Source: Candidatus Multivoradales bacterium (GTDB lineage Bacteria; Acidobacteriota; Thermoanaerobaculia; Multivoradales; JAHEKO01). From it: a DNA stretch of 64,000 nt. A program made the translations under genes and the position numbers. The notes under the pieces are model-generated. The model had not been told where the DNA came from and did no database searches. It worked only from the letters and a program-made list of their open reading frames with translations. This document shows, in pieces, positions 27,664 to 55,913 of the stretch. Position 1 is the stretch's first letter. Every line of letters starts with the position of its first letter. The stretch spans positions 2,006,695 to 2,070,694 of the forward strand of contig CBDCYF010000005.1 of the NCBI GenBank assembly GCA_965224065.1, read 5' to 3'.

Positions 27664-28296
27664 TCAGGGCTGTTCGAACAAGCCAGCGTACTCTTCGCTG
27701 CCCCGCAGCTCGCCGAAATCGGAGTCGTGGAAGGCGTAGACCCGGTTTTTCGGGTTCATCTCGATCGCGGCCCGTAGCGAGTGTGCAGCGGCCTCGTGAT
27801 CGCCCTGGAGCGCGTGGAGCGAAGCCGCCAGATAGGCGAACCGCTCGTCCTTGCCCTCACGCCCGCCGCGGCGACAGATCTCCAGAGCCTCTTCGAGATT
27901 GCCCCGGTTGCGCTCATAGACGGCGTGCAGAAACGGATCCTCCGGCCCCGACGGGCCCTTCGACGCTTTTTGCTCGGCGAGCAGCAGAAACCCCCGCGCG
28001 CGCTGCGCCAACTGCGGAAAGTCGGTCTCGTCGACGACCCTCTGCAACTGTTTCGCCGCTTGCCGGTAGTCGCCTTTTTGAATCGCCTTGAGACCGCTCT
28101 CGAACACCTTCACCAGCGGGTCGTTCTCGATCCGCATCGGCGTGATGGTGTCCTTGGCCTCGAGCGCCATCTGCTCGAGCTTCTCGGCAACGGTCTCCGA
28201 GTCGGTCTTGAAGCGCTCGGCCAGCTCCTCCAGGCGCTTGATCTTGGCGTATCTTTTGAGATACGTCTCTTCTTCTTTCTTCCAGCGTTTTGCCAT
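27664..28296 (-). CDS. Soluble TPR-like helical-repeat protein of unknown function, encoded directly downstream of mglA
   Basis: 210 aa, all-helical with TPR-like repeats (AAHSLRAAIEMNPKN...). It lies 23 nt after the mglA stop on the same strand. Confidence 0.5.
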   Translation of the reverse strand: MAKRWKKEEETYLKRYAKIKRLEELAERFKTDSETVAEKLEQMALEAKDTITPMRIENDPLVKVFESGLKAIQKGDYRQAAKQLQRVVDETDFPQLAQRARGFLLLAEQKASKGPSGPEDPFLHAVYERNRGNLEEALEICRRGGREGKDERFAYLAASLHALQGDHEAAAHSLRAAIEMNPKNRVYAFHDSDFGELRGSEEYAGLFEQP

Positions 28297-28319
28297 TGAT
28301 TTAAACCTCTATTGCAGGA

Positions 28320-28904
28320 CTAGCGCTTGCGGAGCTCGATGAGAATCTGCTTCGCCACCGATTTCAAGGTGTCGAACACTCCGACCCCCTCCGGAGCGAC
28401 CGCTTCGAAGGTTGGTTCGCGCTTGTAATTCAGCATCCGGTACATCTCGTCGACCGGCATCGCATTGGGCAGGTCCCGTTTGTTGAACTGCAGAGCGAAT
28501 GGGACCGTCAGCAGCTCGAACCCGTGCTCCCTGAGGTTGGCCTCCAGGTTGCGGATCGACTCGACGTTCGCCTCCATCCGCTCCCTCTGACTGTCGGCGA
28601 CAAAGACCACGCCGTCGACCCCCTTGAGTATCAGCTTGCGGCTGGCGTCGTAAAAGACCTGGCCGGGCACCGTATAGAGGTGAAAGCGCGTGGTGAAACC
28701 GCGGATCGATCCCAGGTCGAGGGGCAGAAAGTCAAAAAAAAGCGTCCGGTCCGCCTCGGTCGCCAGCGAGATCATCTTCCCCTTCGCAGCGGGAGGGGTC
28801 TTGTTGTAGATGTACTGCAGATTGGTCGTCTTGCCCCCGAGCCCGGGGCCGTAGTAGACGATCTTGCAGTTGATCTCTTTGGCGGCGTAGTTGATGAAGG
28901 TCAT
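28320..28904 (-). CDS. mglA: Ras-like polarity GTPase MglA
   Basis: The sequence is near-identical in motif content to Myxococcus MglA. The P-loop is [20 protein letters not shown], and the switch/[11 protein letters not shown] and NKRDL G4 motifs are present. Confidence 0.85.
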
Positions 28905-29380
28905 TCGCTAAAAAGAGCGTCGATGTCTTCGTCCGTGATCTCCGAGAACGGGCTCGCTTCGGCTCGGGCGTCCGGGCCGCGCTCGGTCTTGTCCGCCATC
29001 TGATCGAAGACTTTTTCGAGCTCCGCGCTCGCCCTCTTGACCCTCAGTCGTACCAGACCCAAAGACGAGCGCTCATCGAAGATCACCAGCAGGATCGCCC
29101 GCCGAGCGACGATCGAGATGTGGATGTGATCTCTCTGGCCCTCGTGGAAAAGCACCGAGAACTCGCGCTCGCCGATGAGCTTCGCCAGCCCGTCGGTGGC
29201 CGCGACATTGCCGGCGGTTAGCGAAGCCAGCGAGGTCGAATCGAACTCGTCAACATCGCCGGCGGCGGCGATGTGCTGGCCGTTCTTGTCGATCAAGAAG
29301 ACGGCTTTTGCGTTCGAGTCGTGGCGCAGCCGCCGGAGCGCCTCCTCCAGGCGGTCGAACTCTTGTTGGAAGACTTCCAT
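28901..29380 (-). CDS. mglB: MglB, roadblock/LC7-family GAP for MglA
   Basis: Roadblock/LC7 fold length and composition. It lies immediately upstream of mglA with a 4-nt overlap. I chose the internal ATG at 29380 (MEVFQQEF). Confidence 0.75.
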
Positions 29381-29573
29381 CAGCGTCCCGAGATGCGCTC
29401 CACCTGGCCCGCGCAAGATATCACAGAGACAGCAGCGCTCCTGTTGCGGACGCTACAGCGGCAGGGCTTCACGCGACCGCGACACCAGTGGTGCACAGGC
29501 CGTTGATAGTATGCCAATTGCGCCGAAAAACCAGCCGATGTGACGCCCTCCGGCCCCTGAGAATCACGCTCCG

Positions 29574-31248: not shown

Positions 31249-32079
31249 CTACTGCGCCGCGGCCTTTGCGACGGCCTTCTTGGCCGTCTTTTTGCGCCCA
31301 CGCCCGCCACCGCGGCGGCGGCGTGAGACCAGCGCCACGGTGTAGGTGCCCGAGCGCTCGTCCTTCTCCAGCTTGATGATCTTCTGTTGCTCGGCGTCTT
31401 CGAGAAGGTCGGTAAAGGTCGAATAACCGTAGTAGCCCTCATTGAACGACGGCCGCTTGCGCTGCATCGTCTGCTTGACCATCGAGCCCCAGAGGATGTC
31501 CTTGTTTTCGCGCTTGAGCGCGTGGATGGCATCGACCATCAGCTCGAACGCCTCGGCGTTCTTGCTTTTGCCGACGCCGGTGAGCTTGGGGGCTTTCTTG
31601 GCCTGGGCCTTATCGCGCCAGACATCCTCGTAGAAGATGAACTCGTCGCAGTTGTCGATCAACAGCGCCGACGAAGAATTCTTGACCCCGACGCCGATGA
31701 CGCTCTTGTTGTTCTCCTTGAGCTTCGAGACCAGCGGCGAGAAATCGCTGTCCCCCGACAACACCACAAAGGTATCCAGGTGCTCCTTTGAGTAACAAAG
31801 CTCCATGGCGTCGACCGCCATCTTCAAGTCCGCCGAGTTTTTTCCCGAATAGCGCCGTTGGGGGATGTCGATCATCTCGATCCCGGACTCGTGGAACGGG
31901 CGCTTGAACTCACTGTAGCGTTCCCAGTCGCAGTAGGCCTTCTTGACGATGATCTTGCCCTTCTCGAGCAGACGCTCGAGCACCAGCTTGATGTCGAATT
32001 TTTTGATCTCGGAATCGCGTACACCGAGCGCCACGTTCTCGAGATCACAGAACAGCGCGATTTTTCGTTCGTCGTTCAA
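31249..32079 (-). CDS. NYN (LabA-like PIN-related) domain protein with C-terminal OST-HTH/LOTUS-like domain and basic tail
   Basis: IALFCDLENV...VVLSGDSDFSPLV carries the NYN acidic residues. The C-terminal ~80 aa match the LOTUS pattern (MVKQTMQRKRPSFNEGYYGYSTFTDLLE). Confidence 0.75.
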   Translation of the reverse strand: MNDERKIALFCDLENVALGVRDSEIKKFDIKLVLERLLEKGKIIVKKAYCDWERYSEFKRPFHESGIEMIDIPQRRYSGKNSADLKMAVDAMELCYSKEHLDTFVVLSGDSDFSPLVSKLKENNKSVIGVGVKNSSSALLIDNCDEFIFYEDVWRDKAQAKKAPKLTGVGKSKNAEAFELMVDAIHALKRENKDILWGSMVKQTMQRKRPSFNEGYYGYSTFTDLLEDAEQQKIIKLEKDERSGTYTVALVSRRRRGGGRGRKKTAKKAVAKAAAQ

Positions 32080-32306
32080 AGGACGGATTTCCTTTCAGCA
32101 AGTGCGACAACGCCGGGCCAAACGCCGGCGCAAGAGTCTGTTTTCCTGGAAATGCCAGGCAGGTAAGGGGTTGGAGGATGGATCAGAAGCTCTTGGGGCG
32201 CGGGTAGTGAAGGCCCCAACCTCGTTTTGCGGGTGGAATTGTAGCATCCAAGCCGGCTGTGCCGAGATAAAATCCACCGCCGCCGTCCGGCCAACCCACT
32301 TTCCGC

Positions 32307-32936
32307 ATGGCACACCGCGTCGCACTGCTCGTCACCGGGGCTTCCGGAATGGCCCTGCCGCGGCACCTCTTGGCGACGCTGACACGGGTCGAGGAGGTCG
32401 AGCGGGTTCACCTGGTGGTGTCCCGCGGCGCCAGCCAGGTTTTGCGGCACGAGCTGGGAGCCGAACAAACCGGCGCCGCCGATCTGGTCGAAGCGGCCGG
32501 TCTGGCGGCTCCACAACGCGACAAGATCGTCACGCACCGCGACGGCGAGCTCGACGCTCCAATCGCGTCCGGGTCTTACCGGCTCACCGGCACGGCGATC
32601 GTGCCGTGCAGCGCGGGCACACTCGGCGCCTTGGCCACCGGCGGCGCCCGCACCCTCGTCCATCGGGCCGGCGCGGTGGCACTCAAGGACGGCTGGCCGC
32701 TGGTGCTCGGGTTTCGCGAGACCCCGTACTCGGTCGTGCACCTCGAGAATTTGAGACGGCTCGCCCACCTCGGCGCGGTGATCCTGCCGCCGGTCCCCGC
32801 TTTTTACATCGGCGGCGAATCGATGGAGCGCTTTCTGGATCACTACGCCATGCGGGTGCTCGACCGGCTGGGGATCGCCATCCCTCAAAGCACCGGGCTG
32901 CGCTGGCCCCCGAGATCGGGTCAAAAAAGCAGTTAA
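32307..32936 (+). CDS. ubiX: UbiX-family flavin prenyltransferase
   Basis: The flavoprotein fold opens VALLVTGASGMALP, with SYRLTGTAIVPCSAGTLGALATG downstream. Confidence 0.85.
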   Translation: MAHRVALLVTGASGMALPRHLLATLTRVEEVERVHLVVSRGASQVLRHELGAEQTGAADLVEAAGLAAPQRDKIVTHRDGELDAPIASGSYRLTGTAIVPCSAGTLGALATGGARTLVHRAGAVALKDGWPLVLGFRETPYSVVHLENLRRLAHLGAVILPPVPAFYIGGESMERFLDHYAMRVLDRLGIAIPQSTGLRWPPRSGQKSS

Positions 32937-32954: not shown

Positions 32955-33551
32955 TCAAACTCGGCCGAAGGCCCGATCGGTCAGAGCCCGAGCCGCCTCC
33001 AGCATGGCTTCTTCCTCGGCGCCACCCGCCAGCGTCAAACCGATCACCGCATCGTCGTCGCAGGTCCAAAGCTGCCCCGTGTTGAGGGCCGAAGCCGAAC
33101 TGAAGGCCCACCACGCCTCGCTGCCGAGGTCGGCGATGTTCTTGGGGGCCGCACCGGTTCCATCCCGGGCCGCGCGCATGTCTCGGCAGATCTCGGACAT
33201 CTTCCGCGCTCCCTCCTGCTTGACAAAAGCTGTCAGGCTGAGGCTCGTCTGGTCCAGCTCGTCGGTGTCCCACAGGCAGTACATCGAGCCCATGGCGCGA
33301 CCAGCCTGAACCGGGTTTCCCACCAGCTCCGACACCTCGGTGTCCTCGATCAGGCCGCAGACGTCGACTCCGAGCTTGCGCCCCGCCCGCTTTGTCTCGG
33401 CGGTGGCGACGATCTCTGAGAGAGCCGGTGAGAGACCCGGCTCACCCTCCGTTGCGGCGTCCTTGTCGGATCCCCCGCATGCGGCCAGCAAGAGGACCAC
33501 GCCCACCGTCGACGCAGCGACCCGCCAGCGTTGTTGCATTCCTAGTCTCAT
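32955..33551 (-). CDS. Cys-containing lipoprotein of unknown function (last gene of the surface-module operon)
   Basis: The lipobox is LLLAACGG, with four Cys in the mature part. It lies 50 nt downstream of the giant ORF on the same strand. Confidence 0.5.
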   Translation of the reverse strand: MRLGMQQRWRVAASTVGVVLLLAACGGSDKDAATEGEPGLSPALSEIVATAETKRAGRKLGVDVCGLIEDTEVSELVGNPVQAGRAMGSMYCLWDTDELDQTSLSLTAFVKQEGARKMSEICRDMRAARDGTGAAPKNIADLGSEAWWAFSSASALNTGQLWTCDDDAVIGLTLAGGAEEEAMLEAARALTDRAFGRV

Positions 33552-33600: not shown

Positions 33601-36600
33601 TCACGGCCTCGACCCCAGTGTGAGGGTCTTTCGCTTCTCGCCGACGACCCGCACCTGTTCGAAGATCTCGGCCGGGGCCCCCTTCACTCGCACCGTGTAA
33701 ACACCCGCCGGAACCGCCACCGGATCCCCACCGACCGCGCCGGTCGCCAGCACCGCCCCGTCGTGGTCCACGACGTCAAACGAGCGGCTGACGGCTGCCA
33801 CCATCGATTCCTCGAGCGAGCGAGCATCGCCGGCATCGTAATACCGCCCGCCGCCCAGTTCGGCCCATCGCCGAAATCGCGCCCGGGCGGCTTCCCGGTC
33901 GCTAGCGTCGACATCGAAGCCGACGATGTTGAGCTCCACGTCGTATCCGCGCCGGCGGAGCGCCTCGATCGCCGCCTCCACGTCGCCGCCGCACGACTCC
34001 TCGCCGTCGGTGACCAAGACCACCCTCTTGGGCCCGGGCCCCTCTCCGAGGTCGCTTCCGACCAGCTCCAGCGAGGCGGCAATCGGTGTCCCCGAGAACG
34101 GCTTGGGCTCGACCGCCGCCAGCACGCGGGCGGTCTCCGCGGCATCGAGCGGCCCGAGCGGCATCTCGAGATCGGTCCGGCAGGCTTTGGCTTTCCGATT
34201 GCCGAACACTCGCAGCGCGAACGGCGTTCCGGGGGAGAGCACATCGCTGACGAGCTGACGAAGCACCCGTTTGGCGACGTCGATGCGAAGCACGCCCCCG
34301 ACCTTTCGATACATGCTCCCGGAGGCATCGAAGATTACCTCGACCGATTCTCCGGCCGTGCCCGGCGCGGCACCATCGGTGGCAGCGGCGACGACCTCGA
34401 TGCTCCCCGGCCCCGCCGGCTCCTCAAACCCGGTCTCTACGAGAACGCGGTAGCTCTTGGGCCGGCGCAAGTAGCACGACGCTCGGGCAAAGCCGACATC
34501 AAAATGGCCGATGGTCCGGGCCGAATCATAGAAACCGCCCCCGACACCCGCCCAGCTCTGCATCAGATCCTGGCTGGCGGCCGACCTCGGCGAATCGTGC
34601 TCGATCGAGGGTGTGTGCATGGTGAAGATCTGCGGCGAGGTCTGTGCGAACGTCTTCCAGAGATCCGTCGTAAGCGCGTAGCCGTTGCTGAAAGCATCGG
34701 TAATGAGCACGATCGCCCTGGCGCCCGGCCTCTTCTCCAGTGCGACCCCGGCGGTCAACAGGGCCAGCTCCGAGTTGCTGGAGAAGGCCTTGGCCGTGTC
34801 GTGCCGGTTAAGCGCCGACATCACCTCTGCTGGATCGCCCGACCATTCCTCGAGCAGAAATCGCGGCGGCTTGTCGAACGGCAGCAAGTTGACGACCTCC
34901 CGGCCGGGCTTGACGGCGCGCGCGAACTGAGTCGCCGCGGCACGGATAAAGTCAGTGTACGGGCCGATGCTGGCGCTGGTGTCCCAGGCAAGCACAACCG
35001 AGCGCGGTGGCTCCTCCAGCCGCAGGTAGTAGCTGCCCGGGGCGACATCAGCGGTCAGCTCGACCCGCTGGTAGGACCGTTCGGACTCGCTCTCCACCGG
35101 GCGTCCGCGCGGGTCTTGCAGACTCCACGAGAACGCGACCGCCGGATCGCCTTGCAGGGTGATGCGAATGGCGTTGTGGCCTTCAGGAACCTCCACCCGG
35201 TACCAGTCCACGTCCTCCTCCACAAGCACCCGCCCCGACAACGCCCGGCCTGGCGACAGCGGCTGAGCCCGCTCCCGGCTGTCGTTGTGATCGGCCTCGG
35301 CGAGAACGGACGTTCCCGAAGCCGGCCGGCCGGCCTCGAAGATCGCGCGGCGGCTCATGAATCCCCACTCGCCGAGGATGGACCTGTAGTCGGCGTCCGC
35401 CCCCTGCTCGAAGATCCTCAGGGTCTCCGGGTACCGGTAAGGTGTCTGCGGCCGCAGATCCCCGGCGGTGAATCGAACAAAGCGCGCCCATGCCGGCTCG
35501 CCGAGCGTCAGGCGCTCGACACCGTCGCCTCCGAGCCGCCAGGTAGCCAGCGTCTCCCAGGGCCCCAACGGGCTCTCCGTCGAAGCGGCCACCTCGATCT
35601 CCTCAAAGCCCAGAGCCCTCGAGCTCCGGCTCTCCGACGGGACCCACTCGAAGCCGGTGATCCTGGCCGCCCGATCGTGGTGAAAGCCCACCACCCAGCT
35701 CGCGGTGTCCTGGTCGTCGGCCGTAGTCGCAAACGTCCGCTCCGCTGCGACCGAGAGGATCGGGTGCTCGGCCGATCCGACACCGATGACGGTCCCGAAC
35801 TCCTCGGTCCCAATCAGCGGATCGGACCAAGCGACATGGCCGCCGAGCGACGGCTGGGCAATGTCCCAGGGTTCGGAGCGCAGCCTGGTCCCGGCAGCGG
35901 CGACGAGCTTCCACTCCCCGAGCGCCACCCCGCGCCCTCCGCCGTGGCTGCTGCCGAGCACAAGTCTCGCGAACCGGGCCTCGACCGGCTCTTCGAACGC
36001 AAAAACCTGCTCGCCAGGAAGCGGCTCGAGACGGCCGGTGAGGACCTCCTCGAAACGCTTGCCGTCGAGCGATGTCGAGACGGAGAATTCGGCAAGCTGC
36101 TCAGTCGCGCCTTCGATCGAGCGCCCCAGCGGATGGAGCAGCGCTCCCCACAGCTCCACCGGTTCTTCCCCGGCCAGATCGACCGTGATCGCCTGCTCCG
36201 TCTCGAACCGAGTCCGGTCTCGCAGCGGGATCGCGAGCCCATCGAAAAGCTCCCCCACAAAACGATCCTCGCCTTCCGCCGCCGCCCCCAGCGCCGGCCA
36301 AGCGACGTTGAGCCCTCCCAGCAGGCGGTCGGGCAGGGGCCACGCCTCGCCGGCCGCGCGGGGCTCCGCCCCGCACTCCGGCTGCAGCTCCACCGAAGCG
36401 GTCGCGACCGCGCCGCTTGCGGTCCGGGCGGCAACCGTCAGCAGAACCGGCTGGTCGTCCCGGGCGTCCGGCAGGATCTCCACCTGCAGCGGAATCGCCG
36501 CCGACTGGGCGGGCCCGACCTCGACCACCTCGCGTAGCAACCGACCCTTCCATGCAGCATCGCTGGTGGCGACTTCAAAACGCAGCGTCTGTATCGTCCC

Positions 36601-38343
36601 GGTCAGATTCTGGACCCAGAGACCGAGGTCGAGGACCTGGGACTGTTGCCAGTAGGCGGCGGCTGAATCGATTCGCCCTTTGATCCCCATCACCACCGCC
36701 GGGGCAACGTCGCCGGCTTCCGCTTTCGACACCCGGTCGACATCCGCCATTTTCTCGGCCGGGGTCAGAAAGGGATCGAGCTGCTCGAGCCCTACTTGAT
36801 AGAAACCTTCGAAGGGTTCTCGTGGCCGGACCGAGATCCAGTGATCGCCGGGAAGCAGCCATCCTTCAAAAATCGCCGGTTCGCCGGGCGCGGAGCTCTC
36901 CGACCGGGTTCCGCCAGTCACGTCGAAGACCACGCGGCCGTCTTCCGGCGGTTCCACCCGGACCCGCACCGGTTGCTCGGCGGCCAGGTGAAAACGGTAC
37001 TGATCGACATCCCTCGGATCCGTCAGCAGCCCGATGCGTGGAGCGCCAACGCGCAAGGTGCCGGCCTGAGCGGGCAGGTGATTGGGCTCGAACTCGCTCA
37101 AACCGGGCGGACGCACGCCGGGGATCTCCACATCGCCCGCAAGGTGCCGCGACGCTTCGAGTCCGGCTTTGGAATCCGCCGGCCCGATGGCCACGATCTT
37201 GAGCAGATACTCCGAGTCCTCTCCCTCGACGGCGATGAAGTGCTCGCCGGGAAGAAGCAGAAGGTTGTCCAGCCGCACCCGGCGCTCACCCGAGGCGCCG
37301 GCGCTCGAACCGGCATTGCCCCCCGCATCGTAGTGGCGCATCGCCCGGACCGGCTGGTCTCTCGCCAGCACCTGCGCACGCCAGAGCATCGGCTCACCCT
37401 CGACCTCGAAACGGTAGACGTCGGTTTCAGCACCCACCAGTCGCCCACGGACCGTCCGTTTCTCATCGAGCGGAAACGCCCCCGCGATGGTGTCGTTCGG
37501 TTCGAGCTCGCGGCCGTCTTCTCCCTCGCCCGCCGCCTCGACTCGCAGGAGGTACGGCGCGGGGGTTCGGTCGGCACGGGCCAGCTCGATCACCAGCTCC
37601 CCGGCCGGCGAGGACAAGTCGTCGAGAACCATCCGGCCGGCCGCATCGGGCTTGCGCTCGGCCAACAGGCTCCCCTCAGCGTCCAGGACCTTGAGGCTGG
37701 TTCGCAAACCCAGAATGGTTTGCGCGGACAGGCGCCACGTGTGGGGTGCCTCCCCGGGCGGCACCGACCACCGGATGGCGTCGGAGGAGCCGGTCAGGTC
37801 CCCGGACAAGACGAACGCGCCGATCCGCGCGACCGCCTCTTGCGCCGGATCGCCGGGCTCTCCGCCGACCGCCTCCGGCAGCGCCCCGGCCAGCCTCAGG
37901 TCGAAACGGTAGGGACCTTCGCCGCTCCCGCCGACGCCGAGCAGGTAGCGGCCGGGCGCGAACAGCAGCGGCCCCGACTCCATCGACCGGACTCCCTGGA
38001 CATCCAGAGTAAAGACCTTGCTCACCGCCCCGCCGGGTTCGCCGGCCAAAAGGACATCCAGCTTTGTTCGCTGGCCCGGAACGCCCTCGAGCTCGAGCGT
38101 CCACAGCGCGGGGCTCTCGCCGGCGACAGTCCACCAGAAAAGATCTTGATCGCCGCTGCCGAGCTCTCCGGTGACGCACATGGCGACTTCGAGGCGCTGC
38201 CCCTCGTCGGGCGTGTTGTTGGGCTCGGTGTCGGCCGCGCAATCGGCGACTTGCCCCGCCGCCAAGCCCGGCGCGAGCACAAGCGCCAAAAGGCAGACCG
38301 ACATTCGGAGACCGCCCGGGAACCTCGCTGCGGGCCGAAACAC
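33601..38343 (-). CDS. 1580-aa secreted multidomain protein: N-terminal PPC-type repeats, two galactose-binding-like (F5/8 type C) domains, a further PPC repeat, and tandem C-terminal vWA domains
   Basis: The signal peptide is MSVCLLALVLAPGLAAGQ. Repeated E(P/F)N(N/D/H)T...D(V/Q)YRF modules are present. WxRFVRF/GEWKL patterns indicate the galactose-binding fold. The two vWA cores are VLAWDTSASIGPY... and VIFDASGSMYRKVGG...VVLVTDGEE. Confidence 0.7.
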   Translation of the reverse strand: MFRPAARFPGGLRMSVCLLALVLAPGLAAGQVADCAADTEPNNTPDEGQRLEVAMCVTGELGSGDQDLFWWTVAGESPALWTLELEGVPGQRTKLDVLLAGEPGGAVSKVFTLDVQGVRSMESGPLLFAPGRYLLGVGGSGEGPYRFDLRLAGALPEAVGGEPGDPAQEAVARIGAFVLSGDLTGSSDAIRWSVPPGEAPHTWRLSAQTILGLRTSLKVLDAEGSLLAERKPDAAGRMVLDDLSSPAGELVIELARADRTPAPYLLRVEAAGEGEDGRELEPNDTIAGAFPLDEKRTVRGRLVGAETDVYRFEVEGEPMLWRAQVLARDQPVRAMRHYDAGGNAGSSAGASGERRVRLDNLLLLPGEHFIAVEGEDSEYLLKIVAIGPADSKAGLEASRHLAGDVEIPGVRPPGLSEFEPNHLPAQAGTLRVGAPRIGLLTDPRDVDQYRFHLAAEQPVRVRVEPPEDGRVVFDVTGGTRSESSAPGEPAIFEGWLLPGDHWISVRPREPFEGFYQVGLEQLDPFLTPAEKMADVDRVSKAEAGDVAPAVVMGIKGRIDSAAAYWQQSQVLDLGLWVQNLTGTIQTLRFEVATSDAAWKGRLLREVVEVGPAQSAAIPLQVEILPDARDDQPVLLTVAARTASGAVATASVELQPECGAEPRAAGEAWPLPDRLLGGLNVAWPALGAAAEGEDRFVGELFDGLAIPLRDRTRFETEQAITVDLAGEEPVELWGALLHPLGRSIEGATEQLAEFSVSTSLDGKRFEEVLTGRLEPLPGEQVFAFEEPVEARFARLVLGSSHGGGRGVALGEWKLVAAAGTRLRSEPWDIAQPSLGGHVAWSDPLIGTEEFGTVIGVGSAEHPILSVAAERTFATTADDQDTASWVVGFHHDRAARITGFEWVPSESRSSRALGFEEIEVAASTESPLGPWETLATWRLGGDGVERLTLGEPAWARFVRFTAGDLRPQTPYRYPETLRIFEQGADADYRSILGEWGFMSRRAIFEAGRPASGTSVLAEADHNDSRERAQPLSPGRALSGRVLVEEDVDWYRVEVPEGHNAIRITLQGDPAVAFSWSLQDPRGRPVESESERSYQRVELTADVAPGSYYLRLEEPPRSVVLAWDTSASIGPYTDFIRAAATQFARAVKPGREVVNLLPFDKPPRFLLEEWSGDPAEVMSALNRHDTAKAFSSNSELALLTAGVALEKRPGARAIVLITDAFSNGYALTTDLWKTFAQTSPQIFTMHTPSIEHDSPRSAASQDLMQSWAGVGGGFYDSARTIGHFDVGFARASCYLRRPKSYRVLVETGFEEPAGPGSIEVVAAATDGAAPGTAGESVEVIFDASGSMYRKVGGVLRIDVAKRVLRQLVSDVLSPGTPFALRVFGNRKAKACRTDLEMPLGPLDAAETARVLAAVEPKPFSGTPIAASLELVGSDLGEGPGPKRVVLVTDGEESCGGDVEAAIEALRRRGYDVELNIVGFDVDASDREAARARFRRWAELGGGRYYDAGDARSLEESMVAAVSRSFDVVDHDGAVLATGAVGGDPVAVPAGVYTVRVKGAPAEIFEQVRVVGEKRKTLTLGSRP

Positions 38344-38352
38344 GACCGCTCC

Positions 38353-40758
38353 TCAGTGGCTGGCCGCCAAAGAGGCGCCCAGGACCCGGAGGAGGATCCC
38401 GACGATCCCCCGGATAATCCTCGAAAGCAGCATCATGGAGCCGCCGTAGGCGCCGACGCCGGTCACGGTCCCGGCAACACACAAACCCGCAGCGATCATG
38501 TCGAGAGACCGTGCGCTCGAGTAGACGCACAAGGCCCCGCTGATCAGATTCGCGACGATCAAATACTCGGTGATGCTCGCGCCCCAGCCGTTTTCGCCGA
38601 TGGCCAGGATCTCGCCGGTTGCGGGATCGAATCGCCACCACCCCCGGTCGCCGGTTCCTCCTCCAGCGTCCGTCTGGGGTGCGACGAGCCAGAATCCCCT
38701 CGCCGTTTCCCCCTCCGCGCGCGCCAACGTGTCCGGCGGAAACCGGGAGCCCTGGCTCCGAACGTCGTCCTCGTCGCGAAGCAGGACCCACGCATCAGCG
38801 CCGAGAGACGTCGAGAGCCGATCCGCCAGGTTGTCGTAGGTCCGGCATGGCAGCATCCCGCTGGTCGGATCGCAGGCCTCGTCGCCCAACAGCGCTTCCA
38901 GGTTCGAGTCGGCGACTCCCTGAAAGAGGGCCTGCCGGCCGTCGGCCGGCAGGGACGCCACGCGATTGGCCACGATGTCAAAAGCCTCCAGGCGCACCGG
39001 ATTGCCAGACGCATCCGTCCTTAGTTGCTGATGGAACGAGAAGACATTCGGCGAGCCCAGAAAAACGGACTCCCCCTCGCCGGACACCCCGTGCCGCAAA
39101 GCCTCGAGAGACAGAAGATCCTGGCGCGGCATTTCAGGCTCCCGACCGGCGTTCGGGTCGCGCGGCGCGCCTGCCGGACCCCTGACCGCGTCCAGGATCG
39201 CCTGCCGCTGTTCGAGCACCCTGCGGGTCACGAGATCGGATACATAGGCTTCGGACAGCCGCGAACCGACGATCAGGATCTCGGTCGTCCCCAGGACCGC
39301 CAGCCGCCATAACGCCCGATCCGTTTCGGTCTCGGCGGACCCGGGTCGGCCGCCGCTCCGGCGCGTGGCGGCTCCGATGAGATCGAAGATCTGCCGGCGG
39401 GTCACCTCCGGTTTCTCCCCAGGCACACGGATCTCATACTCGATCCACTCGGCCGTCAGCCGGCCCGGTTCCTTCACCACACCGGCCCCCTCCCCAGCTA
39501 CCCCACCCAGCCCGGCAATGGCGCCCGCCAGACCACCCGCCTTGCGCTCCAACGCCTTCCCGACCTGGGCCGTGGCGTTGAGCGCCTCTCTCGCCGGACT
39601 CAGCTCGCAGGTGTCCCTGTATGCCTGACTCATCACAGCCTGGGAGCCGATGTCCAGTACGGGGACCCAGAGGTCCTGCTCGCCCACGGTCTCCACGAGA
39701 CGCCGGCCCGGGTCCGCGGCGCTCGACAGATTCAGATCGGACGGCCAGCTCGCCGGAACGTGTCTCAGGGTCACGGGGCGGCCGACGAGCTCGGCGGGGG
39801 TCAGGGGCGCGCTCTGCAGCAAGGTGTGCTCCACCAGCGCCTCGCCGTTCCAACACTCGAGAATCAGCCGAATCCGGACTGTGTGCAGCACGTCCCCTCC
39901 GAGTTGGGAGAGCCTCTCGATTTCGACCGTTCGGTGAGCCGCGGTGGCCGCCCAGCCGACCGGTGCGTTGGGATAGCTCGGATCCAGATCGATCCATCGC
40001 CTGCCGTCCTGCACCCGTACCCACCAGTGGTCCTCGAGGGCGCCGATCTGGCGGCGGCGAAGACCTTCGGCGGCGCCTTCGGGCAGCGGACCGATGACCT
40101 CCGCCAGGAACTTCGCCTGTTCTCGCGTACGTTTCCGCGCCTCGGTCCGCAAACGTTCCACCGCCTCGGCGGTTTGCCGGCCGGCGTCGAGCAATCGAGG
40201 TTCGTCCAGACCGAACTCGGCGGAGTAGCGGTGCAGCTCGGCGAGGGCTGGCCCATCCGAACCATCCGCCTGGTTCCCGGCTCCGCCGGCCGGAACGGGC
40301 CGCGCGAAGGCCATCAGGTCGCTGGCCGCCTCGGGCAGCAGCCGACCGTTGGCGAGCCTCGTTTCATAGCCCACCTGCCGGAGCAGGGTGCTGAGCAGCA
40401 GGGCCCGATCGAGACTGTTGCCTCTGCGGTCCATCAACACACCCACCGGCCCGCGTAGAGCGCCACGGTAGGGCACGAGATGGGTGTTGTCGCGCACCCA
40501 TTCGAACAGCGGCTCGACCTCCGGATCGACCAGGTCCAGAATCGCCTCCGGATCGAAAGTGTCCCGCGGGATCTCCGCGGCTGCTTTTTCCAAAGCGTCA
40601 AAAACACGCTCGGTTTGCGTGACCCGAGCTTCGGTGGCCGCTGCGGCCTGCGCCTGCGCGACCCGAGCCGCCACCGGCCCCGGGACCAGAGCAACGTTCA
40701 AAGTCAGGAGACACAGCACCACGTGGCTGGTGAATCTGGACGCGATCGAGTGGTTCAT
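38353..40758 (-). CDS. 801-aa membrane-anchored transglutaminase-like-fold protein with Ser replacing the catalytic Cys; C-terminal TM helices
   Basis: An N-terminal signal/anchor is followed by GNSLDRALLLSTLLRQVGYETRLANG. This matches the transglutaminase-like core G-C-x-x-x-A-x-L-x-x-x-L-R-x-x-G-I-P-A-R-x-V-x-G, but with Ser at the nucleophile position. A large helical extracellular region follows, then 2-3 TM helices at the C-terminus. Confidence 0.55.
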   Translation of the reverse strand: MNHSIASRFTSHVVLCLLTLNVALVPGPVAARVAQAQAAAATEARVTQTERVFDALEKAAAEIPRDTFDPEAILDLVDPEVEPLFEWVRDNTHLVPYRGALRGPVGVLMDRRGNSLDRALLLSTLLRQVGYETRLANGRLLPEAASDLMAFARPVPAGGAGNQADGSDGPALAELHRYSAEFGLDEPRLLDAGRQTAEAVERLRTEARKRTREQAKFLAEVIGPLPEGAAEGLRRRQIGALEDHWWVRVQDGRRWIDLDPSYPNAPVGWAATAAHRTVEIERLSQLGGDVLHTVRIRLILECWNGEALVEHTLLQSAPLTPAELVGRPVTLRHVPASWPSDLNLSSAADPGRRLVETVGEQDLWVPVLDIGSQAVMSQAYRDTCELSPAREALNATAQVGKALERKAGGLAGAIAGLGGVAGEGAGVVKEPGRLTAEWIEYEIRVPGEKPEVTRRQIFDLIGAATRRSGGRPGSAETETDRALWRLAVLGTTEILIVGSRLSEAYVSDLVTRRVLEQRQAILDAVRGPAGAPRDPNAGREPEMPRQDLLSLEALRHGVSGEGESVFLGSPNVFSFHQQLRTDASGNPVRLEAFDIVANRVASLPADGRQALFQGVADSNLEALLGDEACDPTSGMLPCRTYDNLADRLSTSLGADAWVLLRDEDDVRSQGSRFPPDTLARAEGETARGFWLVAPQTDAGGGTGDRGWWRFDPATGEILAIGENGWGASITEYLIVANLISGALCVYSSARSLDMIAAGLCVAGTVTGVGAYGGSMMLLSRIIRGIVGILLRVLGASLAASH

Positions 40759-40935: not shown

Positions 40936-41580
40936 ATGACGCTTGTGCTCTCGATCGCAACTCTCGTTGCCGCCGTGCTGGGTATCTGGGGTCACTACAC
41001 AACCGAGTCCCGGCGCTGGCTGGCCTACGTCTTCCGGCCGCTGGCCGGGATCTTGATTCTCTGGCTGGCCCTGCTCGGCAACGAGGCCGCCGATCCACGC
41101 TATTACTGGGCAATCGCCGCCGGTCTCTTGTTCGCGCTCGTCGCCGACATCCTGCTGATGGTGCCGCGCGATCTCTTCGTCTACGGCCTGCTCGGGTTTG
41201 CGGCCACCCACGTCTGCTTTCTCTATGCCTTCACATCGGGAGTCGACTTCGCCGCCCACAAGTCGCCGTTTGCGCTCTTCGCCCTGGTCGCGGTGGGGCT
41301 CGTCGCCTTCATCTGGTCGGGCGTGGGCGTTTTGCTCCGGCTGCCGGTCGTCCTCTATGTCGCGCTGCTGGTGTCGATGGCCTCCCAGGCCTGGAGCCGC
41401 CACGCCGACTTGGCGACCGGCGCGACCCTTCTCGCGGCGATTGGGGGAGCGCTCTTCCTGAGCTCGGACGCGGTGCTGTCGGTCGACCACTTCAAGAAGC
41501 CGTTCCAGGCCGCGCGGCTCGCGGTGCTGTCGACGTTCTACGCCGCCGACTGGCTGATCGCGCTCTCGGTCAGCGGGTGA
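40936..41580 (+). CDS. YhhN-family membrane protein (lysoplasmalogenase/TMEM86-like)
   Basis: About 8 TM helices over 214 aa. YhhN-family patterns recur (LLGFAATHVCFLYAF...LFLSSDAVLS). Confidence 0.7.
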   Translation: MTLVLSIATLVAAVLGIWGHYTTESRRWLAYVFRPLAGILILWLALLGNEAADPRYYWAIAAGLLFALVADILLMVPRDLFVYGLLGFAATHVCFLYAFTSGVDFAAHKSPFALFALVAVGLVAFIWSGVGVLLRLPVVLYVALLVSMASQAWSRHADLATGATLLAAIGGALFLSSDAVLSVDHFKKPFQAARLAVLSTFYAADWLIALSVSG

Positions 41581-41660
41581 AGCGCTCGCCGCCGTACAAT
41601 CGGCCGGTGTCCACGTTCGGCCGTACATCCGAAGACGCACCACCGAGGCTCGGGCTGCCG

Positions 41661-41978
41661 ATGGCGGGCGCCGTCGCGCTGCTCGCCATGGCGTGCGGCG
41701 GAGCCAGCTCCGGCGAGACCGTCTACCGCCAAGTCTGCGCCTCCTGCCACGGCATGGACGGCGCCGGCGTCGCCGGCTCGGGCCGAGCCTTGCAAAACAA
41801 CGCCTGGATCCAGAGCCACACGGACACCGAGGCCGTAGAGTTGATCCTCGACGGCCGGCCCGCGGATCACCCCGAGAACGAGCTGGGAGTCGACATGCCG
41901 CCCCGGGGCGGTGACCCGTCGCTCAGCCACGCCGAAGCCCGCGCCATCGTGGCCTACCTCCGCACGCTGCAACCATGA
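41661..41978 (+). CDS. Small mono-haem c-type cytochrome, lipoprotein-anchored
   Basis: The lipobox LLAMACGG and the haem-binding CASCHG are present, and the distal Met lies in GVDMPP. I chose the ATG at 41661 inside the longer ORF. It overlaps the sulfatase start by 4 nt. Confidence 0.7.
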   Translation: MAGAVALLAMACGGASSGETVYRQVCASCHGMDGAGVAGSGRALQNNAWIQSHTDTEAVELILDGRPADHPENELGVDMPPRGGDPSLSHAEARAIVAYLRTLQP

Positions 41979-43408
41979 CGAGAAATCGAGTCCCGATCTG
42001 GACGATCCTGACGATCGTGGGGCTGCTCGGCGGCTGCTCGGCGCCACCGCCCGAGGCCCCCAACATCATTCTGATCCTGGTCGACGACCAGGGCTGGGGG
42101 GGCACCTCGGTGCCCATGCACCCGGAGATCGAGGGGTCCTATAGCGATTTCTACGAAATGCCCAACCTCGAAAAACTCGCCGAGGAAGGGATGCGCTTCT
42201 CCAACGCCTACGCCGCCCACCCCATGTGCTCTCCGACCCGGGCGGCCATCCAGACCGGGAAAGAACCCTCCCGGCTCGGCATGACCGACATCATCAACCG
42301 TCACGGCGCGTTCCGCGAGGGCAACCCGCTGATCCCGCCGCAAAGCCTCAAGGAGCTGCCCGCAGACGAGCTCACCATCGCCGAGCTGATCCAGCGCGAG
42401 CGTCCCGAGTACGCGACCGCCCACTTTGGCAAATGGCATCTCCGTGGCGGGGGTCCCGGCGCCAACGGCTACGACGAGCACGACGGCGACACCGGCAACA
42501 ACAGCTCGCCGCGCGGCCGCTCGCAGACCACACCCAACCCCAAGGACCTCTTCGGCATCACCGAACGCGCCAACGACTTCATGGCCCGTCAGGTCGAGGC
42601 GGGGCGGCCCTTCTATCTCCAGGTGTCCCACTACGCGCTCCACTTGCGGGTCCGGTCGCTCGCCTCGACGCGCGCCAAATACGAGAGCAAGCCCCGGGGC
42701 CGCTATCACTGGGACCCCGGTTACGCCGCCATGACCGAAAACCTCGACACGGCGGTGGGCCAGTTACTGGCCAAGCTCGACGAGCTCGGCATCGCCGAGC
42801 AGACCTATGTCGTCTACACCTCGGACAACGGCGCGATCCTGTCGTCCCCCGCGGGCCGGCAAATCAACGACAACTGGCCGCTGTCGGGCGAAAAGACCCA
42901 GGTGCGCGAGGGTGGGATCCGTGTTCCGCTGATCGTCCGCGGACCCGGAGTCGAGCCGAGCTCTTTCCACCACGGACCGGTGGTGAGCTACGACTTCTAT
43001 CCGACGGTGTGCGACTGGTTGGACCTCGATCCCGAGACCTGCGGCGACGTCGACGGTGGCTCGCTCGAAAGCGTTCTGACTGCGGGTGGACGGGGCACGG
43101 TTCGGCGTCCCCGCGAAGAGCTGGTCTGGCACTATCCCCACTACCAGCCGGAGCGGGGCACGACCCCCCAGACCGCCATCCGGCTCGGCGATCTCAAGCT
43201 CATCCGATACTATTTTCCGCCGGTCGAGATGCTGTTCGATCTGGCCAGCGACCCGGGGGAATCGTACGATCTGACCGCCCAAGATCCCCAGATGGGAAAC
43301 GAGCTCGGCCGACGCCTGGACAGCTATCTCGAGGACGTCGGCGCGCCCATGGTCCGGACGAACCCACAGTACACACCCCCCGCCGGCGAAGAGCCCGAGG
43401 CCGGCTGA
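41975..43408 (+). CDS. Type I (formylglycine-dependent) sulfatase, lipoprotein
   Basis: The lipobox is LLGGCS. The sulfatase signature CSPTRAAIQTG follows a metal-binding DDQGWGG, and the GKWHL motif is present. Confidence 0.85.
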   Translation: MTRNRVPIWTILTIVGLLGGCSAPPPEAPNIILILVDDQGWGGTSVPMHPEIEGSYSDFYEMPNLEKLAEEGMRFSNAYAAHPMCSPTRAAIQTGKEPSRLGMTDIINRHGAFREGNPLIPPQSLKELPADELTIAELIQRERPEYATAHFGKWHLRGGGPGANGYDEHDGDTGNNSSPRGRSQTTPNPKDLFGITERANDFMARQVEAGRPFYLQVSHYALHLRVRSLASTRAKYESKPRGRYHWDPGYAAMTENLDTAVGQLLAKLDELGIAEQTYVVYTSDNGAILSSPAGRQINDNWPLSGEKTQVREGGIRVPLIVRGPGVEPSSFHHGPVVSYDFYPTVCDWLDLDPETCGDVDGGSLESVLTAGGRGTVRRPREELVWHYPHYQPERGTTPQTAIRLGDLKLIRYYFPPVEMLFDLASDPGESYDLTAQDPQMGNELGRRLDSYLEDVGAPMVRTNPQYTPPAGEEPEAG

Positions 43409-43415
43409 GAACGCG

Positions 43416-44855
43416 ATGACGATCACCCGCCGCGGCTTTCTCGCCGGCGCCGGGGCCCTGGCCGCGTCCGCCTTGGGCTGCCGGAGCCCCGAGCGGCGCT
43501 GGGATGTGTGCATCATCGGGTCGGGGTTTGCCGGCACATTCCTGGGGCTCAGGACCGCGGCCGGCGGTCTCGATACCGTCATCCTCGAGGCCGGGACCAA
43601 GGGTGCGAGACCCCGCAGAGGGGCGGCCGGTGAGTTCTTCAAGTACCGGACCAGCGGCGAGATCGATTATTCGGTCAACGCCACCCGCGCCATCGTGGTC
43701 GGCGGGACGAGCACGCTCTGGGGCGGAGTGACCACCCGGCTCTGGCCGAGCGATTTTCGGCTCCAAACCGAGCACGGCCTGTGGGTCGACTGGCCGATCG
43801 GCTATCGGGATCTCGAGCCCTACTGGTGTGAGGCCGAAGAGCTCCTGAAAACAAGAGGCGGCGCCGTGGCGCCGGAGGCCGAGCCGCCGAGAGACTGCGA
43901 CTACCCCACGGGCTTCGAGCAGAGCCTGGAGAGTCCCGCGGTCGAGATCGAGGGCGCGGTGCGGCCGTTCTTTCGTATCGCCCGGTCGAAACGAAACGGC
44001 CGGGCCTTGAGGCTCGACGAGGGAGAGACCGAGGCCTTTGAGACCCACCGCTTGGGGACACTGCTTTCCGACCTTCAGGTCACCCGCATCGTGACCCTCG
44101 ACGGCACCTCGATCGACCACGTCGAAGCCCTGCCGATGAAGGGCGGCGAGCCGCAGATAATTCGCGCCCGCTACTTTGTCGTGGCCGCGGGTGTCATCGA
44201 GAGCGCCAGGCTTCTGCTGATGTCGCGCTCCCAGTGGTTCGAGAACGGCCTCGGCAACCAGCACGGCGAAGCCGGTCGCTACTTCACCGTCCACCCGAGC
44301 TATCAAACGCGCTTCCGCACCACCCGACCGATCAACGTCGGGGGCGGCCAGTTCAGGACCTGCGCGCTCAACGACGACTACAGACGCCGCGGCCTCAATG
44401 CCACCCAATTCCAGCTAGACGTCCAGCGGGCCGACGACCTGCGGTGGCGGGTCCAGCCCGAGATTGAGCCGCAGAGCGACAATCGGGTCACGTTGAGCGG
44501 CGCCACGGATTCCAGAGGAGTGCCCTTCCCCGATATTCGACTCACCTATTCCGATCGCGATCGGGAGACCTTCCGGCGCTGCCGAGCCTTTCTCGACGAG
44601 ACGCGGGCGGATCTGGGCGCGGTCGAGAGCACGGTTCGCGACCACGACCGCTGGCGCGCTCACCCCTCAGGGACCTGCCGCATGGGGTTCGACCCGACCA
44701 ACGGCGTCGTCGATGCCGACAACCGGGTCTTTGGTCTGAGCAATCTCTTTGTCTCGGGCGCATCGACCTTCCCCACCGCCGGCACCGCCAACCCGACCAA
44801 CACCGTCGTCGCCATGACCCTGCGTCTCGGCGACCACCTGTTGCGCCTCGCCTAG
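43416..44855 (+). CDS. GMC-family flavin oxidoreductase with Tat signal
   Basis: The Tat motif is TRRGFLAGAGALAASALGC, and the FAD-binding motif is VCIIGSGFAG. The C-terminal GMC signature is AHPSGTCRMG...VFGLSNLFVSGASTFP. Confidence 0.8.
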   Translation: MTITRRGFLAGAGALAASALGCRSPERRWDVCIIGSGFAGTFLGLRTAAGGLDTVILEAGTKGARPRRGAAGEFFKYRTSGEIDYSVNATRAIVVGGTSTLWGGVTTRLWPSDFRLQTEHGLWVDWPIGYRDLEPYWCEAEELLKTRGGAVAPEAEPPRDCDYPTGFEQSLESPAVEIEGAVRPFFRIARSKRNGRALRLDEGETEAFETHRLGTLLSDLQVTRIVTLDGTSIDHVEALPMKGGEPQIIRARYFVVAAGVIESARLLLMSRSQWFENGLGNQHGEAGRYFTVHPSYQTRFRTTRPINVGGGQFRTCALNDDYRRRGLNATQFQLDVQRADDLRWRVQPEIEPQSDNRVTLSGATDSRGVPFPDIRLTYSDRDRETFRRCRAFLDETRADLGAVESTVRDHDRWRAHPSGTCRMGFDPTNGVVDADNRVFGLSNLFVSGASTFPTAGTANPTNTVVAMTLRLGDHLLRLA

Positions 44856-45724
44856 GATCTCAACGACACGGCCCACGCCGAAGGAAGCCACCTCGGATCG
44901 AAGACAAACAGGTGAGCCAGGATCATTCCCAACGTGAGGTCCGCGAAGTCCACCACGAGGGCAATCCCGAGATGCATCACCAGCATCCACACCCACGCAA
45001 TCCGTCGGCCGGCCCGAAAAAGAGCAAGCGGCAAGGCCGCCAGCTCGCCCACCAGCGCGAACCAGGTCATCCCGGCGAGTATTGGGGCGGGCAAGCCCAC
45101 TAGCAGGTCGCGCACAAACCAGTCGCGAGCCAGCGGATTGGTAACCAGCATCGCCATTGCCTCACCGTTGAGCCAGGATGGCGCGGTCAACTTCATCACG
45201 CCGCTGTACGTATAGCCTGCCATCAGCGCGACAAACCCGGCGCGCCAGAGCCAGCGCGGCATCTGCCAAGATTCTCTGGGTCGACAGTGGCCCGGTGAAA
45301 GACCTTCGCCGGGTGGAACCAGCGCCACGAGCACCAAGAGAAGGCCCACATAGGGCAGTGCGGGGTTGGCAATCAGCAGGTTGCGGTTAAAAAGACACGT
45401 CCAGCCGTACCACAGCACAAGCGCGGTCACCGGACGCCAGTAACCCGCTGCGAACACCAGGGCGAGGAGACAAAGCAGCACCAAGGCCGCCTGGATCACT
45501 CCCGGCCCGTCCAGCACGGCAAGAAGGTTCGGGAACAGTCCGTGGATCGGGCTGACCGAGGGATCGGGGTAGACACCACGGTCGCTGAAAAGCTCGCTCC
45601 CCCACGGCACGAGGTGGGCGAAATGAACCGCCAGATAGAGACCCAGCAGCCAGCGAAACAACGCGAATTGATAGGCCGATTGTGGGACGGGAGCGCTCAC
45701 GAACATTCCGGCCGGAGTACCCAT
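44852..45724 (-). CDS. HTTM-domain membrane protein (vitamin-K-dependent gamma-carboxylase-like)
   Basis: A multi-TM protein whose N-terminal FRWLLGLYLAVHF region matches HTTM-domain proteins. I chose the start at the internal ATG (MGTPAGMF), which has a GGAG RBS. Confidence 0.6.
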   Translation of the reverse strand: MGTPAGMFVSAPVPQSAYQFALFRWLLGLYLAVHFAHLVPWGSELFSDRGVYPDPSVSPIHGLFPNLLAVLDGPGVIQAALVLLCLLALVFAAGYWRPVTALVLWYGWTCLFNRNLLIANPALPYVGLLLVLVALVPPGEGLSPGHCRPRESWQMPRWLWRAGFVALMAGYTYSGVMKLTAPSWLNGEAMAMLVTNPLARDWFVRDLLVGLPAPILAGMTWFALVGELAALPLALFRAGRRIAWVWMLVMHLGIALVVDFADLTLGMILAHLFVFDPRWLPSAWAVSLRS

Positions 45725-46176
45725 CGGTCGCTCCGTCCGCGGGTACGCGTAACGATCTCGACGGCAAGGTCCTCGGTTCGAGCCGGCAGGCCCAGCTCGC
45801 GGCGAAGTGGCCCGTCCGACGTCAGGCCATAGCAGTACACCGGTTGCCAAAGCTCCTCGGAGAGGCGTGGCGCATAGGCCAGTGCCGCTCCATAGACGTT
45901 CCGCCGGTTGTACGGACCCTTCAGGCGCGAGTAGACCTCCGGCGTGATCTCCAACCGTTTCTCATCGTTCTCGTCGCGCCAGACAAACGCGAAGCTCGAC
46001 GAGAAGGTCTCCAGACCCTCGACGTCGCTGAACACTTTTGGCCTCGGAGAGACACCCCAGGCCGCCGCGACACCCACCAACGGCCGCCATCCCGCGACGT
46101 CTCCGATCATCTGGGCCAACGCTACGACCAGCAGCGCTATGCCAGCCAGGTCACGCCAGCTCGTTTCAGACTTCAC
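45697..46176 (-). CDS. Membrane-anchored protein of unknown function (GTG start)
   Basis: The ORF has high GC3 bias and a single N-terminal TM helix (LAGIALLVVALAQMIG). It is bracketed by the HTTM and hydroxylase genes on the same strand. Boundaries are uncertain. Confidence 0.35.
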   Translation of the reverse strand: MKSETSWRDLAGIALLVVALAQMIGDVAGWRPLVGVAAAWGVSPRPKVFSDVEGLETFSSSFAFVWRDENDEKRLEITPEVYSRLKGPYNRRNVYGAALAYAPRLSEELWQPVYCYGLTSDGPLRRELGLPARTEDLAVEIVTRTRGRSDRWVLRPECS

Positions 46177-55248: not shown

Positions 55249-55325
55249 GCACCGATAGCTCAATTGGATAGAGCACCTGACTACGGATCAGGAGGTTGGG
55301 GATTCGAGTTCTCCTCGGTGCACCA
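55249..55325 (+). tRNA. tRNA-Arg (anticodon ACG), with encoded CCA
   Basis: The 7-bp acceptor stem is GCACCGA/TCGGTGC. The D-arm is AGCTCAATTGGATAGAGC. The anticodon stem CCTGA/TCAGG encloses loop CTACGGA. The T-arm is GGGGATTCGAGTTCTCC, and the 3' end is ACCA. It closely resembles E. coli tRNA-Arg(ACG). Confidence 0.85.
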
Positions 55326-55439
55326 TTTGTTTCAATCACTTACGGCTTCGTTGAACGTCGGCGTCAGCACTCGCCGGTGGAGCCCGAGGGTGCCAAAAAG
55401 TCAGCCGACTAGCTTAGCCTCCCTTTATACGGGCCGCGC

Positions 55440-55740: not shown

Positions 55741-55913
55741 CGGATTGCTCAGCTACTACCGGCGCGAGGCCGCGCCACCTGAGCTGTGGGCCGATTTATT
55801 TGCGCCCTGCGGACGGCGACGCTGTTGAGCGCAGTTGGGAAGGAAGATGCTAGACTCCCTCTGACTCCTATACAGATAAGGTCTTCCTAACCGCCCGAGG
55901 AGGTGCAACAGGA

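Follow-up and report, generated by a model that had tools for sequence, protein, structure and literature searches.

The transglutaminase-like gene and its reported motif

The 64,000-nucleotide stretch of Candidatus Multivoradales DNA analysed here (contig CBDCYF010000005.1; hereafter the window) contains a gene for an 801-residue protein whose transglutaminase-like (TGL) core carries serine at the position of the catalytic cysteine, and beside it a gene for a giant secreted protein with VWA domains. The TGL open reading frame (ORF; 38353-40758, minus strand) begins with ATG and is preceded by a GGGGAG ribosome-binding-like site. The original prediction, made from the DNA letters, had placed a 26-residue motif resembling the nucleophile segment of transglutaminase-like cysteine proteases at 40323-40404. 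The motif, GNSLDRALLLSTLLRQVGYETRLANG, is present as written in the minus-strand translation, where it forms residues 113-138 of the ORF, at 40345-40422; the interval originally given was off by 18 nucleotides at its start and 22 at its end. The minus-strand translation of 40323-40404 itself is ALLLSTLLRQVGYETRLANGRLLPEAA, and the plus strand of that interval has a stop codon. The statement that Cys to Ser was the sole departure from the quoted consensus was too strong: I-P-A of the consensus is Y-E-T in this protein and V is A, and 7 of the 10 other fixed positions agree. The features of the gene are as follows.

38353-40758, minus strand: gene for the Ser-type TGL putative envelope protein, 801 residues (ORF, PF01841 match, homologues, AlphaFold2 model)
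40657-40758, minus strand: N-terminal hydrophobic segment, residues ~7-34, ending AQA (hydropathy scan, sequence)
40345-40422, minus strand: the reported motif, residues 113-138, nucleophile helix of the TGL core (translation, DSSP helix 115-128, column conservation)
40414-40416, minus strand: Ser115 codon AGT, at the catalytic-Cys position (in-silico Ser-to-Cys test, conservation, codon survey)
40030-40335, minus strand: family-specific, mostly helical insert, residues 142-243, between the nucleophile helix and the His strand (model secondary structure, split Pfam match)
40027-40029, minus strand: His244 codon in an HWW motif, second residue of the putative triad (translation, conservation, start of strand 243-251)
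39982-39984, minus strand: Asp259 codon in DLDPS, third residue of the putative triad (translation, conservation in 120/120, weak hhalign pairing)
38356-38580, minus strand: C-terminal hydrophobic helices, residues 727-801, with conserved Cys744 and Cys760 (hydropathy scan, conservation; low model confidence)

Serine at the nucleophile position of a conserved core

The identification of this segment as a transglutaminase-like core was borne out by the Pfam profile Transglut_core (PF01841), of which positions 20-83 of 108 match residues 83-144 (E=9.9e-7, 29.5 bits against a cut-off of 23); the alignment does not put the motif elsewhere. The match ends early because ~100 residues lie between the helix and the next core strand. 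When this insert was removed in silico (residues 62-141 joined to 238-280), the match extended over positions 19-108 of 108 with a score of 40.4 bits, and every canonical signature position of active transglutaminase-like enzymes was found to be retained. A single Ser-to-Cys change in the insert-deleted sequence raised the score from 40.4 to 45.8 bits and caused matches to Transglut_core3 and arylamine N-acetyltransferase to appear, a gain indicating that Ser115 occupies the column where Cys is expected. Thus the placement of Ser at the nucleophile position held up, both in the PF01841 register and in the in-silico substitution. In a TGM2 fragment, Cys277 falls at profile position ~54, and Ser115 falls at ~52-54; hhalign against the same fragment aligned the Asp segment alone, pairing Asp259 with Asp358, a weak result (probability 1.6%) that serves as a consistency check only. 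Searching PDB sequences with the insert-deleted profile gave a single weak match, to an N-acyltransferase (E=0.085), in which GNS was aligned with GNC in the right register, and the full profile gave only chance-level matches, located in the helical insert.

An AlphaFold2 model built with 100 homologues (predicted local distance difference test score, pLDDT, 82.7 overall and 97-98 in the core; predicted template modelling score, pTM, 0.87) has Ser115 opening helix 115-128, His244 opening strand 243-251, and Asp259 just past strand 254-258. This is the arrangement of a papain-type core, with the nucleophile position at the N-terminus of a helix and His and Asp on the following beta-hairpin. The transglutaminase-like superfamily (PF01841, clan Peptidase_CA) is further characterized by a Cys nucleophile, and here the residue is Ser115. 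The top Foldseek match is DRC7, a structural axoneme protein; the nearest structural neighbours are PeiW and LapG, both of which are envelope hydrolases. A Foldseek search of the PDB with the whole chain returned no significant match, and no solved structure of the family was detectable either in this way or by sequence search of the PDB.

Conservation was examined in the best 120 homologues of the first search (403 found), which are 31-50% identical to the window protein, ~800-1100 residues long and all labelled hypothetical, and in a larger sample of 298 distinct sequences aligned to the family profile. Ser115 is present in 119 of the best 120 homologues, and His244 and Asp259 in all 120. 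In the larger sample the Ser-His-Asp combination is kept by 283/298 relatives; the Ser position is otherwise occupied by Asn (6), Asp (2), Ala (2) or Thr (1), and there is one case each of Tyr for His and Glu for Asp. Retention of the downstream His and Asp, and Cys versus Ser in orthologues, had been put forward as checks on the original prediction. The two residues are nearly invariant (120/120, with one exception each among 298), and Cys is found at the Ser position in 0/298 relatives and 0/67 species-representative genomes, so that neither of the outcomes named as refuting the prediction, a motif aligned elsewhere or Cys in orthologues, is borne out. The TGL core is the best-conserved part of the protein, and within it Ser115 is 95% conserved across relatives that are ~30-50% identical; Asn114, Asp117, Arg118, Trp245 and Trp246 are at least 96% conserved among the best 120 homologues, and Asp110, which like Asp117 is near Ser115, is also conserved. 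The Ser codon is AGY, one step from the Cys codon TGY, in 61 of 63 species-representative genomes, and TCN in the other two. No Cys-type paralogue was present in any locus sampled.

Helix capping was considered as a reason for the conservation of Ser and rejected: DSSP of the model puts Asn114 at the N-cap and Ser115 at N1, and the capping box is completed by Asp117, so that capping fails to account for the retained Ser. Nor is there the loss or drift of triad residues seen in CC2D2A and most CEP76 proteins; the substitution is confined to the Cys, which has given way to a single fixed residue. Because Ser-His-Asp is kept in 283/298 relatives and the family is wholly Ser-type, rather than a dead paralogue standing beside a Cys enzyme, the alignments point to a site that is selected and functional, not decayed. 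The conservation pattern alone cannot tell catalysis from binding.

A profile search of 1.84 billion cluster representatives (50% identity clusters) found 6134 family members at E<=1e-3 and 2733 at E<=1e-30, labelled as hypothetical only or weakly as Transglut_core, and the whole family of ~6,100 clusters appears to be Ser-type in all members sampled. Scanning one genome per species gave 162 relatives in Acidobacteriota, Planctomycetota, Deinococcota, Methylomirabilales, Aminicenantes, and alpha- and gamma-proteobacteria; some carriers are in culture, among them Thiofilum flexile DSM 14609, Rhizobium wuzhouense W44 and Mesorhizobium prunaredense. The closest relative, at 50% identity, belongs to a Candidatus Multivoradales genome (Acidobacteriota, Thermoanaerobaculia). 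NCBIfam and PADLOC gave no matches for the TGL gene or its neighbours, except one sub-threshold VWA match for the partner, and no sign of a defence system; a search of a plasmid collection also gave no match. Full-text literature searches found no description of the family or of its pairing with a giant secreted VWA protein.

The VWA partner, predicted membrane anchors and surrounding genes

The gene adjoining the TGL gene, and the smaller gene beyond it, have the following features.

33601-38343, minus strand: partner gene, a 1580-residue secreted protein with PPC, F5/8-type-C and two VWA domains, 9 nucleotides downstream of the TGL gene (Pfam)
34315-34329, minus strand: metal ion-dependent adhesion site (MIDAS) motif D-A-S-G-S of the C-terminal VWA domain, partner residues 1339-1343
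34969-34983, minus strand: MIDAS-like D-T-S-A-S of the first VWA-like region, partner residues 1121-1125, poorly conserved among partners
32955-33551, minus strand: 198-residue lipoprotein with lipobox LLAAC (weak DUF3558 match; homologue only in the locus of the closest relative, L001)

The full MIDAS signature of the C-terminal VWA domain, consisting of DxSGS, GT and TDGE, is kept in at least 90% of 62 partner homologues. Over 80 non-redundant loci, a homologue of the partner lies next to the TGL gene in 66; in 49 the two genes are immediate neighbours in the same orientation, their stop and start codons often overlapping. Gene order varies, and each of the five annotated contigs has a partner homologue beside the TGL gene. 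Both proteins start with hydrophobic export signals, that of the partner being of Sec type. The 198-residue lipoprotein is possibly a lineage-specific third gene of the unit. A 282-residue ORF at 32076-32924 (minus strand) was considered for the same role and rejected; its composition is rich in Arg, Gly and Pro and non-coding-like, it matches no Pfam family and lacks homologues in related loci, and it is probably not a gene. A second, divergent pair is found 5 kb upstream of the main pair in a Methylomirabilales genome (L003:1-5321; also L004 and L010), where a VWA/F5-8C/PA14 protein is followed by a 721-residue Ser-type TGL protein without C-terminal hydrophobic helices.

Hydropathy analysis of the window TGL protein revealed a single hydrophobic segment at the N-terminus and two or three more at the C-terminus. 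The N-terminal segment, ending in AQA, is read as a signal peptide or signal anchor and the C-terminal helices as a membrane anchor, from which we infer that the TGL core faces the periplasm or the outside of the cell. A C-terminal hydrophobic segment was also found in 88/120 relatives, and those of 1000-1100 residues have about six additional N-terminal hydrophobic helices. Cys744 and Cys760, both conserved to at least 90%, lie at the first two C-terminal hydrophobic helices or immediately behind them; disulfide formation, metal binding and acylation are possibilities for their role. A Rosetta-stone search found no Pfam matches in the N- and C-terminal extensions of longer relatives. Among alphaproteobacterial, acidobacterial and gemmatimonadal members, tails of ~300-850 residues extend past the hydrophobic helices; they are rich in Pro and Gly, of low complexity and coiled-coil-like, match nothing in Pfam, and resemble spacers that would span the envelope. 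The long-tailed members are:

L079:7866-11537
L063:7653-12062
L049:7977-12818
L056:7638-11411
L083:7875-11228

Elsewhere in the window, a YhhN-family membrane protein, a sulfatase and a GMC oxidoreductase are encoded divergently from the TGL gene at 40936-45850, with an HTTM-domain membrane protein on the opposite strand; these genes are envelope- or periplasm-related, and a link to the TGL/VWA pair is not evident. At 27664-29416 (minus strand) there is an MglA/MglB-like polarity module consisting of a Roadblock/LC7 (MglB-like) protein, a small Arf/Ras-like GTPase and a TPR protein, and 31249-32079 (minus strand) encodes an NYN ribonuclease and OST-HTH/LOTUS in one protein (NYN E=4e-37). A tRNA-Arg(ACG) gene is followed, within 55249-58466, by a stretch of ~51% GC (genome ~66% GC) containing three ORFs without Pfam match, which may be an integrated island; after it comes a subtilase (S8) gene at 58828-60615.

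Catalysis or binding, and relation to known systems

The reading that we favour, although we put it at rather less than an even chance, is that the TGL protein carries a catalytically competent hydrolase centre of serine type, which would act on the VWA partner or together with it, on the model of LapG. It builds on homology, residue register, conservation, gene pairing and the intact MIDAS of the partner, and from these it predicts a topology, a triad geometry, catalysis and a substrate. In the proposed mechanism, a membrane-anchored protein would hold a transglutaminase/papain-type domain outside the cytoplasm, with Ser115-His244-Asp259 in place of Cys-His-Asp. Asp259 would orient His244, which in turn would activate Ser115 at the first turn of the helix, and the resulting acyl-enzyme ester would lead to hydrolysis of a peptide or isopeptide (amidase) bond. 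The TGL protein and the adjacent secreted VWA protein would constitute a two-gene unit, in which the VWA protein is the likeliest substrate, to be processed or released much as periplasmic LapG trims the giant adhesin LapA; alternatively, the partner might recruit a substrate via its metal-binding MIDAS site. We favour hydrolysis because Ser115 lies at N1, where capping offers no explanation for it, because the family is wholly Ser-type, because the neighbours PeiW and LapG are hydrolases, and because the pairing resembles that of LapG and LapA. Periplasmic LapG and its giant adhesin provide a precedent for the coupling of a protease with a giant protein (PMC3032545, PMC4359373), and C-to-S mutants of bleomycin hydrolase and congopain retain measurable activity (PMC10318531).

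Several observations weigh against this reading. In the ~4% of relatives whose Ser is replaced by Asn, Asp, Ala or Thr, the His, the Asp and the flanking motifs are retained all the same. Of the Asn-bearing sequences, four form a subclade of their own, spanning three phyla, in which the order G-S-N-L-D-R replaces G-N-S-L-D-R, so that Asn stands at the nucleophile position; WxAxD replaces WxDxD, and the helix cap is retained. Its members are:

L052:1198-3543, minus strand (a normal Ser-type copy is in the same locus)
L077:7905-10262
L086:7749-10148
P0021

A distant paralogue with Pro at the Ser position (SANPLEKALFL; L047:1592-5350, plus strand) has an intact HFWV...WVDLDPS and adjoins a normal family member; other, more distant paralogues (L003, L071) are Ser-type. 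The His/Asp hairpin can therefore persist without the nucleophile. In 14/80 loci no VWA neighbour is detectable, and a few acidobacterial loci carry an OmpA-domain gene instead, so that the partner may not be the substrate. To our knowledge, protease activity has been demonstrated for none of the natural proteins that carry Ser in place of Cys on the papain/transglutaminase fold. Plasmodium SERA5, with Ser at the Cys position, acts non-enzymatically (PMC4671257), menin, in which a conserved Ser accompanies the two other active-site residues, is regarded as a non-enzymatic scaffold (PMC10318531), and the activity of Ser variants is treated as speculative in the literature (PMC10318531, PMC3495828).

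Nearly as likely as hydrolysis is that the core is a non-catalytic docking module, a pseudoenzyme whose old cleft uses Ser, His and Asp as hydrogen-bonding residues to bind a peptide segment, most plausibly from the VWA partner, so that the giant protein would be tethered or organised at the membrane but left uncut; in one variant, the cleft region could offer an acidic residue to the partner's MIDAS site. Docking fits the top Foldseek match, DRC7 being a structural protein whose clade includes Ser-type members (PMC3495828), the intact MIDAS of the partner, which is a protein-ligand binding device, and the Asn, Asp, Ala, Thr or Pro variants, which keep the His/Asp hairpin and in some cases also the partner gene. 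However, binding alone does not easily account for 95% Ser at N1 over 30-50% identity, next to an invariant polar neighbour (Asn114), or for the retention of all canonical signature positions of active enzymes, and no Cys-type paralogue is present in the sampled loci to supply the chemistry. The suggestion in the original prediction that the protein is an inactive protein-binding scaffold is thus not established, given the conservation of Ser, the near-invariance of His and Asp and the Ser-type character of the whole family; it continues to be a strong rival because menin and SERA5 are regarded as non-enzymatic (PMC10318531, PMC4671257).

The two other explanations that we considered are far less probable. 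A Ser-using cross-linking transglutaminase or acyltransferase, in which a Gln- or ester-derived acyl-enzyme would be resolved by Lys or another amine so as to fix the VWA protein to an envelope component, is quite unlikely: the nearest structural neighbours are hydrolases, not cross-linkers, attack of a Ser hydroxyl on a Gln carboxamide is chemically unfavourable, and we know of no Ser transglutaminase. Nor did a conserved Gln/Lys acceptor motif come to light, although no search was aimed at one. Artefact or decay, that is, a Cys codon misread as Ser or a pseudogenised relic, has a negligible chance of being correct, even though AGT (Ser) is one base from TGT (Cys), since the 801-residue ORF is intact and its TGL core is the most conserved part. 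Sequencing error is excluded because Ser-His-Asp occurs in 283/298 independent relatives, from many phyla and assemblies, and Cys in none.

Both Ser-for-Cys replacement in the papain/transglutaminase fold (PMC10318531) and linkage of a transglutaminase-like protein with a vWA protein, in the MoxR-vWA-YebA operon (PMC3495828), are already known. The use of a Ser nucleophile on this fold in nature is an acknowledged open question (PMC10318531), the natural cases tested so far being non-enzymatic, and the TGL family supplies thousands of diverged sequences with a fixed Ser-His-Asp, as well as cultured carriers. It is conceivable, though we consider it unlikely, that the ~6,100 clusters (Acidobacteriota, Planctomycetota, Deinococcota, Methylomirabilota, Proteobacteria) would prove to be the first large family of natural Ser-nucleophile enzymes on the transglutaminase/papain fold, membrane-anchored Ser-His-Asp hydrolases responsible for the processing or release of the giant VWA/MIDAS surface protein encoded with them, and thus a Ser-based counterpart of LapG-LapA without cyclic di-GMP. 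Demonstration of serine catalysis would raise the interest of the family. For annotation, its clusters could be defined by GVLMDRxGNSLDRALLL ... DHWWV ... WxDLDP together with the predicted partner, and the TGL/VWA pair may represent an unrecognised means by which bacteria of soil and sediment deal with giant VWA proteins of the surface or periplasm.

Among known systems, LapG (BTLCP; PDB 4FGO) has a Cys nucleophile, is small and soluble (181-residue chain), binds calcium near its active site and is controlled by LapD, whereas the TGL protein has Ser at this position, 801 residues and hydrophobic anchors, and is 15% identical to it. The substrate of LapG is exported by a type 1 secretion system, while the TGL partner has a Sec-type signal. 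Genes for GGDEF/EAL/HAMP (LapD-like) proteins or for ABC or membrane-fusion secretion components adjoin the TGL/VWA pair neither in the five annotated loci nor in the window; the nearby ABC-type genes in those five loci are exclusively MacB/FtsX permeases, several kb off. The pseudomurein endo-isopeptidases PeiW and PeiP (PDB 8JX4, 8Z4F) are viral or archaeal enzymes with a Cys nucleophile and no VWA partner, and are 14-18% identical to the TGL protein; the OmpA-domain neighbour at some TGL loci is no more than a weak hint of a connection with the cell wall. Ser-type domains like those of the TGL family also occur in menin and in part of the DRC7/CCDC135 clade, but these are eukaryotic nuclear or axonemal proteins, have neither membrane anchor nor VWA partner, and show no sequence relationship to it beyond the superfamily. 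Plasmodium SERA5, DUF2145, DUF2272, DUF3750 and APC5867 share with the TGL family a naturally conserved Ser for Cys in the papain fold, a rare and poorly explored condition (PMC10318531) of which SERA5 is the best-tested case (PMC4671257), but they belong to other branches of the clan and have other architectures, and a VWA partner has been reported for none of them.

The MoxR-vWA(DUF58)-YebA/TgpA operon resembles the TGL/VWA pair in its genetic coupling of a membrane transglutaminase-like protein to a vWA protein. In that system the vWA protein is predicted to recruit substrates for cleavage, and YebA proteins are predicted thiol-type peptidases with the domain in a predicted cytoplasmic loop and strict linkage to the MoxR AAA+ ATPase (PMC3495828). 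No MoxR-type AAA+ gene (AAA_3/AAA_5) was found in the five Pfam-annotated loci or beside the pair in the window, the AAA-family matches in those loci being STAND NTPases only (AAA_16 and AAA_22, in L001 and L002). The TGL protein differs further in its Ser, its export signal, its giant secreted multidomain vWA partner and its lack of Pfam matches beyond PF01841; the longer members of the family, with about six additional hydrophobic helices at the N-terminus, may be closer to YebA/TgpA.

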